A DNA stretch of 64,000 nucleotides from Candidatus Multivorans sp. (GTDB lineage Bacteria; Acidobacteriota; Thermoanaerobaculia; Multivoradales; Multivoraceae): positions 2,784,001 to 2,848,000 of the forward strand of contig OZ251997.1 in assembly GCA_965247095.1 (NCBI GenBank). Direction: 5' to 3'. The notes beneath the pieces were generated by a model. That model did no database searches. It worked only from the letters and a program-made list of their open reading frames with translations, and was not told the DNA's origin. Position numbers and translations under genes: made by a program. This document shows positions 57,098 through 64,000 of the stretch, in pieces; within the stretch, counting starts at the first letter, position 1, and the number at the start of each line of letters is the position of its first letter.

Positions 57098-59944
57098 CTA
57101 CTCGACCGTCACCCAGATCGGCGACGACCAGGCGATCTCCCGATTCTTCTGGATCACCCGCACATAGTAGTAGTGCTCGCCGGGCTCGACGTCGCTGTCG
57201 ACGAAGGTCAGGCTGACCTCCTGTTCGAGGTTCTGGCGGTTGTAGAGGAAGGTCTGGTCGCGGATGATGTCGATCTGCTCGATGCGGGCGGTGCCGATCA
57301 CGTTGACCACAAGCTCGAAGCGGCCCGAAACCTCGGCGATGTCGCCCTGCAGGTACTCGCGACCGTTCGCGCGCATCCGGTAGTCGAGGACGATGTTGTC
57401 GGTCGCTGCATAGGAGTGGCGCTTCTTCATCGCGTCCAGGAGGCCCCCGGCGGTGAAGTCCTCGGCGATCGTGGCGGCGTAGGAGATGTGGGTCGAGATG
57501 TGGTCCGACGCGGCCTGCACGCCGAGCTTGTAGCCCTTGGCCCATGCGTTCCAGACGAACCCGGCGGGCTCGAAGCCGCCCTGCTGGCCGATCGGTTTCT
57601 CCGCGGTCGCGGCGCGGGGAGCGCCCTCGTACTCGGCCGACGTGCGGTCGCCCTGGTAGATCTCGACCAGCGGTTCGACGTCGGGATCGTTGTCGCGCCA
57701 GTCGGTGCCCATGCCGGTGGCCGAGGTGTGGGGGATCGAGATCGCGTCGTGCTCCCGGAGGTAAGCGAACAGCCTCGCCGCACCTTCTTCGTGTTCTTGC
57801 TCCGCCTCGGTGATCGGCAGGGTCGGGATGCCGCGCTTGGCCGAGAGGATGTTGCGGTGGCCGTCCGGATAGCTGATGCTGCGCTCGTAGGTGTAGACGG
57901 GCACGAAGCTCCCCGGCAGACGGAAGATGTCGGCGATCTGCGGGTGTAGCCAGTTCACGTATTCGATGTCCTGGCCGCCCAGGTTGTTGTGCTCGCTGAC
58001 GCCCAGGAAGTCGAGTTCGGCGGCGTCGAGGGCGTAGCGGTAAGCCTCCATCAACGAACCGTCGTTCAGACCGTCGTGCGAGAACTCCGTGTGGCGGTGG
58101 GTGTCGCCGCGGTAGATGCGGTAGGTGCGGCCTTCCGATTCGATCGTGTAGGCGCGGATGCGGGCCACGTCTTCGGCCTCGTTGGGGTGGACCGGGTAGG
58201 TGTGGTATTCGCGCACGTCCGGGTCGACGAGCCGCGGCGGCGTGGCCTCGCCGGTCAGCGCGGGGAGCTTCGCCGCGTTGATCGAGGAGTGGTCGAACAG
58301 GTACTCCTCGGAGTCCCGGTTGTCCGTCGGCCAAGCCGCGAACAGGTTGCCCCGGCCGTCCGAGGCCAGCTCCCAGCGCACGTCCTGGCGGCCGCGACTG
58401 AACGGCAAGTGGAGCGGCCGCGTCCATGCGCCGCCGACGTAGGCGGTGCCGTGGAGCTGCCAGACCGCGCGGTGGGCCGGCGTGAAGTCCGGCGTGTCGC
58501 GCGCCCGGATCGTGCGGTGGCGGAAGAACAGCCACATCCGGCCGTCGGCGTCGGTCTGGAGCACGGGCAGGTCGTTGAAGCCCGTGATGTACTCGGGGAG
58601 TTCCTGTTCGAGCAGCTCGTTCACGTCGGCTGCGGGAACCTGCCAGCGGACGCCGTCCCACACCGCGACCGCCAGGGAGCGCCACTCGTAGATACGGGTG
58701 GCTTCCTTGTAGATCTCGAAGCCCGAGTCCTTGCCCCACTGGAAGCCGCTCTCGTTCCAGGCCGCCCAGAGTCGGTTCTGCCGATCGCAGGCGATCGAGA
58801 CGTGGGCCTCGAACTTCGGCGTGTCGGCGACCGGGGCCGTGTCGCCCCAGCGCTCGCCGGAGAAGCGGCGCAGCAGGATGTCGTAGTTGCCCTGGTCGTA
58901 GGTGTCCCAGGCGACGTAGACGGAACCGTCACCGCAGGCCGCGACAGCCGGCGTCCAGTCGTTGGCGGGCGAGGCCGAGACCGTCTCCTCGGCCGACCAG
59001 CCCGAGCCGTCGTGGCGCCGGGCGAGGATGTCGGAGCGGCCGTCGCGGAAGCCCTGCCACACGAGCCACAGATTGCCGCTCGAGTCCGTGACGAGCTCGT
59101 GTTCGATATCCGCCTGGGGCGCGGAGGTCAGGCGCTCGGTTGCCGACCAGTCGCCGGTGTCCGCGTCCTCGAGATAGCGGCCGTAGAGGTCGAAGTTGGC
59201 GTCGACCTGCTCGGACCAGACCAACCAGGGCCTACCCTGGCCGTCGCGGCCCAGTTTCGGCATCAGCCGGTCGCCCGGCTCGTCGGTCACGGGGACCGCC
59301 GGCTGCCAGGTCGAGCCGTCGAAGCGGCGCGCCATGATCGAGACGCCGCCGTCCCGGTAGGCGGTCCAGGCGGCCCAGACCTCACCGTTCTCGCCGCTTG
59401 CCAAGGTCGCGAAGTCGTTCTCGTCGTCCGGCGACGACAGCGGCTCGGCCGGCGCGACCCGGTCGGCCAGCACAGCGCCGTCGAGGAAGGAGAGCTCCTC
59501 GTCAACGTCGAGGTCCGCCGGCCGCAAGTCGAAGTCGCCCCGCGGCGTCGTGAACGCAAGCCGCGTCCCACCGCCGCCCGCCACGTCGACGACGATGCCG
59601 GGCTGATGCAGGTAGGTCACCGTTCCCAGCGGGTCCTCCCACTGGTACACCCGCCGCGGGTAGTTCATGCCCTCCCGCGTCGCCATCGTCCAGGCGAGAC
59701 CGTCGACCGTCTCGGTCGGATGCACACTCCAGTTGCGGACGGCCAGCACCTCGCCGCCCGTGGCCTCGACCGAACCATCCCACGTCTGCGTTTCCGTGTC
59801 CGTGATGCCGAACCGGACTCTGACCGAGACGACGTCGTCGCCCGCAAGCGGCGGAATCGCCTGTGCGGTGAGGGAACCTGCCGCGAGGACCAGGGCAGGA
59901 AGGCAGCAGAGAGCGGCGGCGCGCAGGACGAATTGTCGAGCCAT
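57098..59944 (-). CDS. Exported beta-propeller + DUF3604/PHP-fold metallohydrolase (paralog B2)
   Basis: Signal peptide; RGDTHRHTE, SEHN, GHRN, IPHTSATGMGTDWRDND, ASDH; ends AWSSPIWV. Confidence 0.75.
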   Translation of the reverse strand: MARQFVLRAAALCCLPALVLAAGSLTAQAIPPLAGDDVVSVRVRFGITDTETQTWDGSVEATGGEVLAVRNWSVHPTETVDGLAWTMATREGMNYPRRVYQWEDPLGTVTYLHQPGIVVDVAGGGGTRLAFTTPRGDFDLRPADLDVDEELSFLDGAVLADRVAPAEPLSSPDDENDFATLASGENGEVWAAWTAYRDGGVSIMARRFDGSTWQPAVPVTDEPGDRLMPKLGRDGQGRPWLVWSEQVDANFDLYGRYLEDADTGDWSATERLTSAPQADIEHELVTDSSGNLWLVWQGFRDGRSDILARRHDGSGWSAEETVSASPANDWTPAVAACGDGSVYVAWDTYDQGNYDILLRRFSGERWGDTAPVADTPKFEAHVSIACDRQNRLWAAWNESGFQWGKDSGFEIYKEATRIYEWRSLAVAVWDGVRWQVPAADVNELLEQELPEYITGFNDLPVLQTDADGRMWLFFRHRTIRARDTPDFTPAHRAVWQLHGTAYVGGAWTRPLHLPFSRGRQDVRWELASDGRGNLFAAWPTDNRDSEEYLFDHSSINAAKLPALTGEATPPRLVDPDVREYHTYPVHPNEAEDVARIRAYTIESEGRTYRIYRGDTHRHTEFSHDGLNDGSLMEAYRYALDAAELDFLGVSEHNNLGGQDIEYVNWLHPQIADIFRLPGSFVPVYTYERSISYPDGHRNILSAKRGIPTLPITEAEQEHEEGAARLFAYLREHDAISIPHTSATGMGTDWRDNDPDVEPLVEIYQGDRTSAEYEGAPRAATAEKPIGQQGGFEPAGFVWNAWAKGYKLGVQAASDHISTHISYAATIAEDFTAGGLLDAMKKRHSYAATDNIVLDYRMRANGREYLQGDIAEVSGRFELVVNVIGTARIEQIDIIRDQTFLYNRQNLEQEVSLTFVDSDVEPGEHYYYVRVIQKNREIAWSSPIWVTVE

Positions 59945-60061: not shown

Positions 60062-60298
60062 ATGTCCAACGTGGTAAGGAAGACAATCTCTCTGCCGCCG
60101 GATCTTGCCCGCGCCGCCGAACAGATCGCGGAAGCGGAGGGGAAGACCCTGAGCGCCGTTGTTCAAGAGGCACTTCGAAAGGCCTGCGCCCACTACTTCG
60201 AAGCGGAGCTTGAAGCGCTGCAGGGCTACTGGAGTCGCCGAGCGCAGGAGGGAGGTGTACTGACGGAGGAAGATCTTGATCAGTGTCTCCAAGAGTGA
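60062..60298 (+). CDS. Ribbon-helix-helix (CopG-like) antitoxin
   Basis: AAGGAG RBS; MSNVVRKTISLPPDLARAAEQIAEAEGKTLSAVVQEALR; it is the tail of shadow ORF 57989-60298. Confidence 0.82.
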   Translation: MSNVVRKTISLPPDLARAAEQIAEAEGKTLSAVVQEALRKACAHYFEAELEALQGYWSRRAQEGGVLTEEDLDQCLQE

Positions 60299-60385: not shown

Positions 60386-62329
60386 GTGCGCCGAATAGTC
60401 GTTTTGATCCTGAGCCTGACCGTACTTCTGTTCCTCGGTTGCGCCGCCGGCGACTCCGACTCATCCGACCCCTCCGCGGCCGCTGCCGGCGCGTCCGCTG
60501 CCGCCGGACCGCCCGCGGACCGCCAGGCCTTCTTCGGCGACCTGCACGTCCACACGCGCTACTCCTACGACGCCTTCGTGTTCGCCACCCGCGCCGGTCC
60601 CGACGAGGCCTACGAGTTCGCCAAGGGGAACCCGATCCAGCACCCCGCCGGCTTCGATCTCCAGCTCGACCGGCCGCTGGACTTCCAGGGCGTCGCGGAC
60701 CATGCGAACTACCTCGGGATGCTGCCGGCGATGATGGACCCCGGCTCTCCGGCCTACAACCACCCGGCGGCCGAAACCGTGCGCACCGCGCAGACCGTGA
60801 CCGAGCGGCGGGGCATCTTCCGCGCCATGCAGCCCTACGTGCGTTACATGGAGGACGCCGATCCGAGCATTCGCGAGCACCTCAACAAGGATGTCGTGCG
60901 TTCCGCCTGGAGCGAGATCGCGGCCTCGGCGAACCGCCACTACGAGCCCGGCGTGTTCACGACCTTCATCGCCTACGAGTACACGTCCGCCGGCGCCGGA
61001 GGCATCTACGAGAACCTGCACCGCAACGTCGTCTTCCGCGGCGCCGAGGCGCCCGACATCCCCTTCTCACGGCTCGACTCCTACAACCCGGAGGACCTGT
61101 GGGCCCGGATGGACGAGTGGCGCGCCGACGGCTTCGAGGCGATCGCGATCCCCCACAACACGAACGGCTCCGGCGGACGCATGTTCGAGTACGAGTACTT
61201 CGAGGGCGGCGCCATCGATCAGGCCTACTCGGATCTCCGCAGCCGCAACGAGCCCGTCGTCGAAATCACCCAGACCAAGGGAACCTCGGAGACCCACCCC
61301 GCGCTGTCGCCGAACGACGAATGGGCTGGTTTCGAGATCATGCCCTACCGGGTCTCGACCAGCATTGCGAGCGAGCCGCCGGGCAGCTACGTGCGCGACG
61401 CCTTCCGCCGCGGCCTCACGATCGAGGCCGGCGGCGTGTCGAACCCGTACAAGGTCGGCGTGATCGGCTCGTCCGACACTCACGTCGCCGCCGGCGCCTT
61501 CGACGAGGAGACCTACTGGGGCGCCTCGGGCCTCATGCAGCAGACCGCCGAGCAGCGCGGCTCGGTGCCCAGCGAGCCCGCCGGGGCGGGAGCGAGCTTG
61601 CAGGAGCCCAGCGCCGCCGCGCAGCCGGTCGACGACGGCACTGGCCGCATCTACCCCTTCACGACGGCGATCACCAACGGCGCCTCGGGCCTCGCCGCTG
61701 TCTGGGCCAACGAGAACACCCGCGAGTCGATCTTCGACGCCATGCGCCGCAAGGAGACCTTTGGCACCAGCGGTACCCGGATCCAGGTCCGTTTCTTCGG
61801 TGGCGCCGCACTCTCGGGCCTCGATCTCGACGACCCGGACCTCGTCGCGGCCGCGTACGAGGCTGGCGTCGCGATGGGCGGCGACCTCACCGATGAGAGC
61901 GGTGGCGAAGCACCGAGCTTCCTCGTTTGGGCGATGCAGGACACCATGGCGGCACCGCTACAGCGCGTCCAGATCGTCAAGGGCTGGGAATCAGACGGCG
62001 AGACAGCCGAACAGGTCTACGACGTCGCCTGCTCCGACGGCCTCGAGGTCGACCCGGCCACTCACCGTTGCCCCGACAACGGCGCCACCGTCGATCTCAC
62101 CGACTGCTCAATCAGCACCGATGTCGGCGCCGGCGAACTCAAGACCCTCTGGACAGACCCCGACTTCGACCCGGGCCAGCGCGCCTTCTACTACGCCCGG
62201 GTCCTCGAGAACCCCACCTGCCGCTGGTCGTCCTGGGATGCGATCCGAGCCGGTACAACTCCCCGCCAGGACTTCCCGGCAATCATCCAGGAACGCGCCT
62301 GGTCGTCGCCGATCTGGTACACGCCGTAG
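60386..62329 (+). CDS. Canonical DUF3604 lipoprotein (paralog C)
   Basis: FLGC lipobox; FFGDLHVHTRYSYDA, NLHRNV, IPHN, QTKGTSETHP, SSDTH, IQERAWSSPIWY. Confidence 0.9.
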   Translation: MRRIVVLILSLTVLLFLGCAAGDSDSSDPSAAAAGASAAAGPPADRQAFFGDLHVHTRYSYDAFVFATRAGPDEAYEFAKGNPIQHPAGFDLQLDRPLDFQGVADHANYLGMLPAMMDPGSPAYNHPAAETVRTAQTVTERRGIFRAMQPYVRYMEDADPSIREHLNKDVVRSAWSEIAASANRHYEPGVFTTFIAYEYTSAGAGGIYENLHRNVVFRGAEAPDIPFSRLDSYNPEDLWARMDEWRADGFEAIAIPHNTNGSGGRMFEYEYFEGGAIDQAYSDLRSRNEPVVEITQTKGTSETHPALSPNDEWAGFEIMPYRVSTSIASEPPGSYVRDAFRRGLTIEAGGVSNPYKVGVIGSSDTHVAAGAFDEETYWGASGLMQQTAEQRGSVPSEPAGAGASLQEPSAAAQPVDDGTGRIYPFTTAITNGASGLAAVWANENTRESIFDAMRRKETFGTSGTRIQVRFFGGAALSGLDLDDPDLVAAAYEAGVAMGGDLTDESGGEAPSFLVWAMQDTMAAPLQRVQIVKGWESDGETAEQVYDVACSDGLEVDPATHRCPDNGATVDLTDCSISTDVGAGELKTLWTDPDFDPGQRAFYYARVLENPTCRWSSWDAIRAGTTPRQDFPAIIQERAWSSPIWYTP

Positions 62330-62442
62330 CTAGGGCACGCCCGCTGCGGCACTCGACCGCCCGCTGAGACAAGAGCCGCGATAGGCTGCGCGCCGGGTAC
62401 CGACTAACGACCGCCAAAGTGCCCCGGGCCCAGAGCGACGAC

Positions 62443-63315
62443 ATGATCCACCGTCTTCCCACCGTCCGCAGTGACTGCGGGGGCTTTGAGCATCTCGGCC
62501 ATCTAGCCGCTGCGACAAGCGACCTCTTCGCGGAGAAGTTGACCCTGGATATGTCCCGCGTGAGGTTCTTCGATGCGAACATGGCCGCCCCGTTGGGCGC
62601 GATACTCTCTCGCGTTGCGGACAATCTCAACCACGTGGAAGTCGTGGCCATGCGAGATGATGTCGGGCGAATCCTCCGCAAGAATGGGTTTCTCACGCAC
62701 TACTGGTACGAATCCCTAGAAGACAGTTTCTGCACCACGATGCCTTTCCGGCGTTTTCGTCTGCTCGACGAAGGCGCCTTCGAGGACTACGTGCATCGAC
62801 AACTCCGCGACAAGGGAATGCCCATGATGACCGGCGCTGCTAGTAGGGTCTTCAGGCAGAAAGTATTTGAGGTCTATCAGAATGCGGTCATCCACTCCGA
62901 ATCGGATATCGGCGTCTTCGCATGTGGTCAGTTCTTCCCTAACAGGAACCGGCTCGACTTCACGGTAGCCGACGGGGGGATGGGGATTCGTGACTCCGTC
63001 CGGCGCTACTTCGGGCAGCCCCGAATTGACTCTATTCCGGCTCTCGAGTGGGCTCTGAAGCCGAATCACACGACGAAGCGTGGTCCGCAGCCAGGAGGCC
63101 TTGGACTTGGGTTCCTTCAGGAGTTTTCGAGACTCAACCGGGGCAAGATACAGATTGCGTCTCGGTTTGCGTTCTACGAGTTTACAGGAGGCCAAGAGCA
63201 CTTCCGCAAGATGTCGGCGGACTTCCCAGGAACCGCCGTCACAATCGAAGTAAACACCGCAGATGAGACGACATACTCGTTGACCAGCGAGACGGCGTCG
63301 GAAGACATATTTTGA
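62443..63315 (+). CDS. STAS-like + HATPase_c (GHKL) ATP-binding protein
   Basis: EVYQNAVIHS (N box), DGGMGI (G1), GGLGL (G2), FPGT; no H-box; alternative GTG start at 62419. Confidence 0.82.
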   Translation: MIHRLPTVRSDCGGFEHLGHLAAATSDLFAEKLTLDMSRVRFFDANMAAPLGAILSRVADNLNHVEVVAMRDDVGRILRKNGFLTHYWYESLEDSFCTTMPFRRFRLLDEGAFEDYVHRQLRDKGMPMMTGAASRVFRQKVFEVYQNAVIHSESDIGVFACGQFFPNRNRLDFTVADGGMGIRDSVRRYFGQPRIDSIPALEWALKPNHTTKRGPQPGGLGLGFLQEFSRLNRGKIQIASRFAFYEFTGGQEHFRKMSADFPGTAVTIEVNTADETTYSLTSETASEDIF

Positions 63316-63337
63316 GCTTGAGAGGCGAGGTGACGAG

Positions 63338-63703
63338 ATGAATGCACCAGTGGTCGTTCGCGTCTACGACATCATAGGAGGGCCGCTCTGCGTGTCCGCC
63401 GAAGATGGTCAACGGCTGTACGACAAGATAGCACCCCTGCTGGAGACCGGGAGGCCCGTGATTCTCTCATTCAAGAGAGTAGAGACGATGATCTCTGCTT
63501 TCTTGAACGCTGCGGTGGGTCAGCTCTATCAGGGTTTTCCGGAGGAGAGGATCAGAGAGCTTCTTCAGGTGGAGGACATGGATTCCGATGATAGGGAGGT
63601 GCTTAGGCGCGTGGTCCGGAATGCGAAGCTCTACTTCGAGAACGCGGAGGACTTCGATCGGGCATGGGAGGAGGAGTTGGCGGATGCCGGGGACGAGGAA
63701 TAG
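63338..63703 (+). CDS. STAS-like domain protein (DUF4325 type)
   Basis: CVSAEDGQRLYDKI..VILSFKRVETMISAFLNAAVGQLY; GAGG RBS. Confidence 0.85.
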   Translation: MNAPVVVRVYDIIGGPLCVSAEDGQRLYDKIAPLLETGRPVILSFKRVETMISAFLNAAVGQLYQGFPEERIRELLQVEDMDSDDREVLRRVVRNAKLYFENAEDFDRAWEEELADAGDEE

Positions 63704-64000
63704 AGCTCACGACGTATCGCAGTACACGTTCTCTGGAGGCGAGGTCATACTTATCGACGCAAACGTCTGGCTTCATCTGTACCCCGCCCCGTCGGATAGA
63801 CGACGGCAGTATGTGGTTGAGTACAGTCGGGCACTGAAGTCGATGCTGTCGGCAGGCGTAGAGGTGGTGATGGACCCTATTGTCTTGGGAGAGTACTTGA
63901 GGGCTTATTGCGGAATAGAGTGGCGAGCTCTTCATCGGCAAAGACACCCGAACTTCAAGAAGTTCCGGAACTCGACGGACTTCTCGACCGTTGGTGGGCA
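63684..64000 (+). CDS. PIN-domain protein (partial, runs off the window)
   Basis: Open frame from ATG 63684: EVILIDANVWLHLY..PIVLGEYL..FKKFRNS; GGAGGAG RBS; not in the ORF track. Confidence 0.8.
   Translation, partial: MPGTRNRAHDVSQYTFSGGEVILIDANVWLHLYPAPSDRRRQYVVEYSRALKSMLSAGVEVVMDPIVLGEYLRAYCGIEWRALHRQRHPNFKKFRNSTDFSTVGG

Follow-up and report, generated by a model that had tools for sequence, protein, structure and literature searches.

A divergent VapKSC-like kinase, antitoxin, and toxin triad in a horizontally acquired islet of Candidatus Multivorans

The window analyzed here is a stretch of 64,000 nt of contig OZ251997.1 (positions 2784001-2848000) from Candidatus Multivorans sp.; the next 20 kb downstream (L002) were added to the analysis. 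At the right-hand end of the window, three genes lie in the same orientation and encode a protein with STAS and GHKL kinase domains, a stand-alone STAS-like protein, and a PIN-domain protein. This arrangement resembles the VapKSC operon of Chambers, Rani, Min, Villa, and Corbett (EMBO J 2026; PMC13373217; preprint 10.64898/2026.02.02.703251), in which VapK consists of STAS and GHKL kinase domains and VapC is a PIN protein. The three genes very probably represent a member of the VapKSC family, that is, a kinase-gated toxin-antitoxin and anti-phage module. The system itself was already published in 2026, and the window copy is a divergent and apparently intact member of it.

Gene structure and insertion site

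The features of the locus, in window positions, are as follows.

62331..64000, continuing past the window edge to approximately 64617: inserted low-GC islet with vapK, vapS, vapC, and a DUF7387 (HicB-like) gene
62443..63315, plus strand: gene A, vapK-like, 290 aa; STAS domain at the N-terminus (aa 1-89), followed by a GHKL Ser/Thr kinase domain similar to SpoIIAB (aa 96-275)
62881..62883, plus strand: Asn147 codon of the vapK-like gene, N-box asparagine of the kinase ATP site
63338..63703, plus strand: gene B, vapS-like, 121 aa, STAS-like (DUF4325) antitoxin (putative) with an acidic C-terminal tail
63494..63496, plus strand: Ser53 codon of the vapS-like gene, predicted phospho-acceptor, the Ser of M-I-S-A-F-L
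63684..64000 in the window, with the end at 64244 (L002:1684-2244), plus strand: gene C, vapC-like PIN toxin (putative), 186 aa
63756..63758, plus strand: Asp25 codon of the vapC-like gene, the first among the catalytic acidic residues in the PIN domain

In the alignment, the start codon of gene A (ATG 62443) agreed with the starts of all homologues. Gene C starts with the ATG at 63684, shares its first 20 nt with the end of gene B, and is truncated at the window edge; the downstream sequence supplied its remaining part. The guanine plus cytosine (GC) content was 0.55-0.58 from about 62400-62600 to 64400 and 0.66-0.72 in the flanks on both sides. An original prediction, made from the window sequence before the present analysis, had described three co-oriented genes that were more AT-rich than their flanks, with an overlapping PIN open reading frame (ORF) truncated at the edge, and all of this was borne out.

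For comparison, 24 further genomes of the genus were searched. One of them (G016) contained a true kinase orthologue, with 82% identity and at the same site, and four others contained only weak matches to the GHKL domain (E 6e-9 to 4e-4). The DUF3604 gene located upstream of the islet was found in 24/24 genomes, with 83-95% identity among the 22 best matches listed. In the sister genome G024, the sequence of window position 64620 begins 2 nt after the stop codon of the DUF3604 gene (window 62329), which represents an empty site. A similar empty site, with approximately 100 nt in between, was observed in the sister genome G001. Because both sites are empty, the insertion could be delimited as a 2.3-kb segment extending from window position 62331 to approximately 64617. 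The islet was therefore acquired horizontally, which the original prediction had held to be plausible.

No direct repeat of 8 nt or longer was found at the ends of the islet. The content of the site varied between the sister genomes. In G016, the orthologous vapKSC is directly followed by genes for a restriction endonuclease of the XcyI type and a DNA methylase of the N6/N4 type (L077:3081-4710), and 99 nt of the DUF3604 gene are present in duplicate at the right-hand junction. In G024, an IS110 transposase and an AAA_14/DUF4143 ATPase are encoded nearby.

The three proteins and the predicted VapS-VapC complex

A structural model of the gene A protein was obtained with AlphaFold2 on an alignment of 39 homologues, with a predicted local distance difference test (pLDDT) value of 87 and a predicted template modeling (pTM) score of 0.88. 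A Foldseek search with this model gave only generic GHKL matches (E ~1e-4), which left the choice between SpoIIAB and the CA domains of histidine kinases undecided and the STAS domain undetected. For this reason, the model was also compared with 48,161 PDB representatives using VIA-align, a comparison that is independent of Foldseek. The best structural match of residues 96-275 was the anti-sigma kinase SpoIIAB (Z 13.1, root-mean-square deviation (rmsd) 2.7 Å over 135 aa), approximately 3 Z units above the CA domains of histidine kinases. Residues 1-89 matched RsbV and other anti-sigma antagonist STAS proteins (Z 10.1, rmsd 2.0 Å over 86 aa), and the matches of the RsbV/SpoIIAA type ranged from Z 8.7 to Z 10.1. 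At the level of sequence profiles, Pfam matched HATPase_c with E 0.0038 and, at aa 30-82, STAS_2 with E 0.007, in both cases under the curated cut-offs. NCBIfam returned a faint spoIIAB match for the kinase (E 0.0084), and no protein of the module was above the NCBIfam cut-offs.

The STAS and GHKL domains fill the protein, and therefore no room is left for a DHp/H-box domain. Gene A as a histidine kinase was rejected, given the lack of a DHp domain; the modeled fold thus agrees with the GHKL ATPase with an N-terminal STAS-like region and no H-box that had been recognized from the translation. Residues E143, N147, H151, D177, G179, G219, and G221 of the N, G1, and G2 boxes and the ATP site were invariant in 39/39 homologues. 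Asn147 is presumably equivalent to N218 of the related kinase CapK, in which the N218A mutant of the conserved asparagine was inactive (PMC13373217).

The product of gene B matched PF14213 (DUF4325, STAS-like) with E 5e-17 and was similar to Escherichia VapS (PDB 9z7o_A) over aa 8-114 with E 4.9e-15. Ser53, the serine of the MISAFL motif to which the original prediction had drawn attention in this stand-alone STAS-like protein, aligned with chain residue S66 of 9z7o_A. From the two lengths, we infer that S66 is the native S48, if the 18 extra residues of the chain are an N-terminal tag. The published acceptor of the VapS STAS domain is a Ser or Thr that is conserved absolutely, S48 in Escherichia (PMC13373217); among 34 sequences of the present set, position 53 was occupied by Ser in 32 and by Thr in 2. 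The acidic C-terminal tail was also conserved across the homologues. Searches of gene B against Pfam and NCBIfam gave no match to a DNA-binding domain. An ordinary VapBC pair was rejected on these grounds, the protein encoded upstream of the PIN protein being DUF4325/STAS-like.

The full-length product of gene C was over the Pfam threshold for the PIN family (PF01850, E 3e-5, 25.0 bits versus a cut-off of 23.6). A profile of 33 gene C sequences matched Escherichia VapC (9z7o_C) over its full length with E 6.2e-13, and Asp25 aligned with D28 of that protein. Residues D25, E70, D146, T162, D164, and D166 were invariant in 33/33 sequences. The acidic catalytic residues, all of these except T162, whose presence the original prediction had required, are thus all retained.

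The predicted complex of VapS and VapC had a score of 0.89, versus 0.01 for the best of three controls; the mark used for this score was reached by 116/157 solved complexes and 2/215 mismatched pairs. Agreement of contacts between runs was at least 93%, and the pLDDT value of the partner was at least 89. The predicted interface includes residues 50, 52-55, and the tail 102-118 of VapS, together with N27, E70, and D164 of VapC. Within it, Ser53 touches VapC residues 32-33, and the tail 102-118 lies against VapC residues 77-83. The crystal structure of VapS2-VapC2 has been solved, and VapS leaves the active-site Mg2+ of VapC in place (PMC13373217). The predicted interface mirrors the published arrangement, with a buried Ser and the VapS C-terminus near the VapC active site. 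Because a like complex has been solved (9z7o), the prediction may show this likeness only, without lending independent support.

Comparison with known systems demonstrated the greatest similarity to VapKSC. Sequence homology was found for all three window proteins, the genes follow the K-S-C order on one strand, the VapK-like protein combines STAS and GHKL domains, the VapC-like PIN protein has the equivalent catalytic Asp, and the predicted interface buries the Ser as the crystal does (PMC13373217). CapK and CapS, which regulate immune operons, share with the window proteins a STAS+GHKL kinase, which in the case of CapK is turned on by single-stranded DNA (ssDNA) and phosphorylates a conserved Ser of a STAS protein (PMC13373217). 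However, CapK has an extra helix-turn-helix domain at its N-terminus, and CapS is a transcriptional repressor of the winged helix-turn-helix type, whereas the window STAS protein lacks a DNA-binding domain and would act on a PIN toxin.

The SpoIIAB-SpoIIAA and RsbW-RsbV pairs, on which the original prediction was modeled, resemble the triad in the SpoIIAB-like kinase domain, the RsbV/SpoIIAA-type STAS domain, and the acceptor Ser in a STAS domain. This part of the analogy stood. The analogy failed in that the window kinase has its own STAS domain and that the output protein would be held by the STAS protein and not by the kinase. In addition, neither a sigma factor nor a PP2C phosphatase was identified by a Pfam scan confined to the locus, which covered the islet genes and neighbors.

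The triad is similar to type II VapBC systems in that a PIN toxin is neutralized by a small protein (a putative antitoxin in the triad) encoded just upstream by an overlapping gene. It differs in that the antitoxin has a STAS fold and is not a DNA-binding VapB (ribbon-helix-helix, AbrB, PHD/YefM, or similar), and in that release is proposed to proceed via phosphorylation and not via proteolysis. A pairing of PIN and DUF4325 genes was described for the PIN.4 subfamily (Matelska et al., 2017; PMC5499597); in contrast to the window triad, the kinase and the mechanism go unmentioned in the accessible part of that paper.

Conservation and genomic neighborhood of the triad

A word-indexed protein search with the kinase revealed 524 relatives at E <= 0.001. 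Many of these were exactly 290 aa in length and 57-82% identical, and they originated from Gemmatimonadota, Gammaproteobacteria, and Elusimicrobia. Relative to the published system, the window member is a divergent one and belongs to a tightly conserved clade of 290-aa kinases with such identities among the kinases aligned across phyla. Scanning one genome per species with the kinase alignment produced a set of 53 loci, which were found with the kinase alone. In 53/53 loci, homologues of genes B and C were located 3' of the kinase gene with strand and order unchanged, and the B and C genes mostly abut or overlap by a few bases. Because the gene order is identical in every locus, the arrangement of the triad is not due to chance; the conservation that the original prediction required is therefore strict. 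The loci were labeled as Acidobacteriota, Latescibacterota, Rhodothermales, Elusimicrobia, Planctomycetota, Verrucomicrobiota, Desulfobacterota, Chlorobi, Chloroflexi, Actinobacteria, Synergistota, Spirochaetes, Cloacimonadota, Methylococcaceae, and other groups. Some of the genes were damaged: PIN genes were shortened or split in L011, L030, L040, and L051, and the kinase genes of L040, L042, and L053 had been split or shortened or had lost an internal part. The PIN genes of L026 and L036 were cut merely by contig ends.

A tblastn search of plasmids showed that the kinase is 34% identical over 290 aa (pairwise E 2e-62) to a protein of plasmid P5 of Deinococcus gobiensis I-0. The three consecutive genes on this plasmid are annotated, in order, as ATP-binding protein, STAS-like domain-containing protein, and PIN domain-containing protein. 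D. gobiensis I-0 is among the genomes of the 289 vapKSC operons catalogued in Dataset EV3 (PMC13373217). Five host-taxon names of the window's clade, Chlorobium, Cryosericum, Methylomonas, Gemmatimonad-, and Latescibacter-, were absent from the accessible part of the same dataset.

A complete vapK-vapS-vapC triad was also observed on a 7-kb virome record labeled Bacteriophage sp. (MT837343.1, L057:1456-3183; the label is unverified). Its proteins are 36%, 38%, and 27% identical to those of the window. Phages or other mobile elements may also be vehicles of vapKSC.

The neighborhood of the triad was studied by clustering the flanking ORFs of the 53 loci; recurrent neighbors were identified by PADLOC and counted with the L020 proteins as queries. 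The recurrent large neighbors were HmaA (SNF2 helicase), HmaB (DNA methylase), and HmaC (ATPase), the components of Hma, a defense system proposed by Payne et al. (2021; PMC8565338). The vapKSC genes were located beside or within Hma operons in 24/53 loci, including 17 with HmaA upstream and HmaB downstream, 5 with HmaB only, and 2 with pieces of HmaA only. Other SNF2 helicases were encoded downstream in 3 further loci. These counts are lower bounds because several loci have short flanks. In L020 (1435-10868), the gene order is hmaA-vapK-vapS-vapC-hmaB-hmaC, with 4-nt overlaps between hmaA and vapK and between vapC and hmaB. The hmaA-hmaB slot contains, together with vapKSC, a Septu PtuA gene in L018 (1423-10866) and a PDC-S32 gene in L008 (1282-10870).

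Embedding in Hma has been used by the same group to find new defenses (Payne et al., 2024, preprint; 10.1101/2024.01.29.577857), and the position of vapKSC between hmaA and hmaB in 17/53 loci follows the "embedded gene" pattern of that preprint. The window copy differs from such cargo in having no Hma gene or remnant alongside: a tblastn search of positions 58000-70000 (window coordinates) for the three Hma proteins, HmaA, HmaB, and HmaC, detected nothing, and the copy stands alone. The terms STAS, GHKL, HATPase, histidine kinase, and DUF4325 are absent from the main text of the preprint. Neither "Hma" nor "embedded" occurs in the main text of the VapKSC paper (PMC13373217), and in the accessible part of Dataset EV3 "DMS_other" occurs 20 times, "RM_type" 32 times, "brex" 6 times, and "hma" 0 times. 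A tentative reading, which we regard as possible but doubtful, is that vapKSC in the window's clade is primarily cargo of the Hma operon, placed between hmaA and hmaB, that the whole block moves between phyla, which would imply functional coupling, and that the window copy is a module freed from the Hma context. If this were true, VapK might read ssDNA produced when the Hma SNF2 helicase engages foreign DNA, or it might fire when a phage disables Hma, and VapKSC would form a second, abortive layer of a DNA-modification-type defense.

Around the window copy, a DUF7387 (HicB-like) gene is located at 64269-64610 (L002:2269-2610), directly 3' of vapC and inside the inserted segment. Its GC content is higher than that of vapKSC, and no partner toxin was seen. 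The DUF7387 gene as a fourth component of the module was rejected, as it adjoins the triad in only 1/53 other loci (L003). A second toxin-antitoxin pair, consisting of an Xre/MbcA/ParS-type antitoxin (PF09722) and a RES-domain toxin, lies at 65023-65924 (L002:3023-3924), approximately 0.8 kb downstream of vapC. On the other side of the islet, two DUF3604-related genes in divergent orientation occupy 57098-59944 (minus strand) and 60386-62329 (plus strand). The 647-aa DUF3604 protein gave a full-length match to the family (E 1e-219), and paralogues are numerous in the genus, with several matches per genome and up to 22. A small ribbon-helix-helix gene (CopG/RHH_1, YlcI/YnfO-like) is located alone between the two DUF3604-family genes, at 60062-60298, and no adjacent toxin was recognized.

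Proposed mechanism and alternative explanations

The published work provides a functional basis for the interpretation of the triad. Escherichia VapC is toxic and its D28A form is non-toxic; VapS neutralizes VapC, whereas the S48E and C-terminal deletion forms of VapS fail to do so (PMC13373217). The operon of Escherichia sp. E4736 conferred approximately 2-log protection against phage Bas42, and this protection was lost in VapC D28A, VapS S48A, and VapK F54A (PMC13373217). F54 is the conserved aromatic residue through which VapK would bind ssDNA, with W68 as its counterpart in CapK. An AlphaFold 3 model and the analogy to CapK, for which activation by ssDNA was demonstrated in vitro, led to the proposal that ssDNA also activates VapK (PMC13373217).

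By analogy with this system, the VapS-like protein of the window would bind VapC, the PIN nuclease toxin, and hold it inactive via the STAS face bearing Ser53, and its acidic C-terminal helix would lie over the VapC active site. The STAS protein is regarded as the antitoxin because in the published system it, and not the kinase, holds the output protein. The trigger would probably be ssDNA arising from DNA damage or from phage infection or replication, as proposed for the published system, which would activate VapK. The activated kinase would phosphorylate Ser53 in the VapS-VapC interface, phospho-VapS would leave VapC, and the freed nuclease would arrest or kill the cell. A phosphorylation-gated PIN toxin, plausibly anti-phage, had been put forward from the sequence; the homology supports this proposal, which coincides with the model published for VapKSC (PMC13373217).

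Several observations weigh against the assignment to VapKSC or against the transfer of its mechanism to the window copy. Toxicity, neutralization, phosphorylation, the ssDNA trigger, and phage defense would extend to this copy by analogy with the published homologue. For the published system, the accessible text reports that VapK was insoluble and that phosphorylation of VapS and activation by ssDNA were supported by AlphaFold 3 models and the F54A mutant, with no direct demonstration (PMC13373217). In the alignment of the 39 kinases, which covered the window kinase and its homologues, the candidate equivalents of F54 were position 42, with 25 F, 11 W, 2 S, and 1 V (aromatic in 36/39), and position 43, with F in 32/39. 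Neither the VapK sequence by itself nor a 24-sequence profile had a meaningful sequence match among the solved structures of the PDB. The top PDB match of gene C alone was Escherichia VapC 9z7o_C with E 0.027, and the identity to the characterized Escherichia proteins was low. The triad on D. gobiensis plasmid P5 is likely the operon catalogued in Dataset EV3, an assignment made from the genome and not by IMG id. A promoter and terminator scan of the plus strand upstream of vapK detected no sigma-70-like promoter, although the scan may not suit the organism. PADLOC (v2) had no model for, and gave no match to, genes B and C, and the only PADLOC match of gene A was to positions 141-274 of the 1750-position DrmA model PDLC02567 (E 3e-11; protein aa 138-274). 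Finally, no PADLOC defense model was matched among 12 proteins encoded next to the window copy.

Membership in DISARM, which the DrmA match could indicate, was rejected, and the match was ascribed to a GHKL domain common to both. An N-terminal GHKL domain may be present in some of the proteins classified as DrmA.

The alternative that survives best concerns the role in the host. The same proteins may act as a DNA-damage or general stress toxin-antitoxin module, or as a stabilizer of the islet, and not in phage defense. The boundary between immunity and stress is fuzzy for VapKSC according to its authors, and of the 289 catalogued operons 36% were within 10 kb of a PADLOC match and 64% were without one (PMC13373217). 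The window locus fits such a role in that the 12 neighbors tested included no PADLOC defense gene and that the DUF7387 HicB-like gene and the Xre/MbcA/ParS antitoxin with the RES toxin are neighbors of the toxin-antitoxin type. However, the protection against phage Bas42 by the Escherichia operon, the location of 24/53 related loci beside or within Hma defense operons, and the XcyI restriction enzyme and DNA methylase directly 3' of vapKSC in G016 argue against it, and we consider this role unlikely. A defense-island setting, which the original prediction had proposed to look for, was thus observed in some of the relatives and not around the window copy.

A second alternative retains the toxin and antitoxin and changes the action of the kinase: VapK may act by sequestration or respond to a trigger other than ssDNA, for example through ATP-dependent binding of VapS without stable phosphorylation or through sensing of a phage protein. 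SpoIIAB and RsbW act as binders and as kinases, which counts in favor of sequestration. The STAS domain of the kinase has an invariant alanine, A45, in 39/39 homologues, at a position that we take, from a manual comparison with the SpoIIAA phospho-Ser motif, to be that of the acceptor Ser of the antagonists; this domain would therefore be a sensor or docking domain. The lack of a direct demonstration of VapS phosphorylation and of ssDNA binding by VapK in the accessible published work also leaves room for this alternative (PMC13373217). Opposed to it are the release of VapC by the phosphomimetic S48E and the loss of defense in S48A in the Escherichia system, the in vitro activation of the related CapK by ssDNA (PMC13373217), and the invariance of all ATP-site residues of the kinase. 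Taken together, we find this alternative improbable.

In a third alternative, the kinase and the STAS protein would be a classical partner-switching pair acting on a sigma factor or on some other target encoded elsewhere, with the PIN gene as a mere neighbor. This would be in keeping with SpoIIAB as the best structural match of the kinase, the anti-sigma antagonists among the STAS matches, and the faint NCBIfam spoIIAB match. It was rejected as extremely improbable: the PIN gene is located 3' of the STAS gene in 53/53 loci of many phyla, and the stop codon of one often overlaps the start codon of the other; neither a sigma factor nor a PP2C phosphatase was seen in the islet or among the neighbors tested; and VapS-VapC binding was predicted here, with the homologues crystallized as a complex.

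The assignment to VapKSC has several consequences. The published model of the system had been derived correctly in the original prediction from sequence alone. The present analysis adds to the published catalogue a divergent and very well conserved VapKSC clade, whose checked host-taxon names are missing from the accessible part of the published list, and a before-and-after insertion site that shows recent horizontal gain. For annotation, the name VapS antitoxin can be given to DUF4325 proteins whose genes are flanked by those of a STAS-GHKL kinase and a PIN protein. For the family, the location of nearly half of the clade loci at Hma is a physical tie between an ssDNA-sensing abortive module, as VapKSC would be, and a helicase-methylase system, and it suggests a layered defense.

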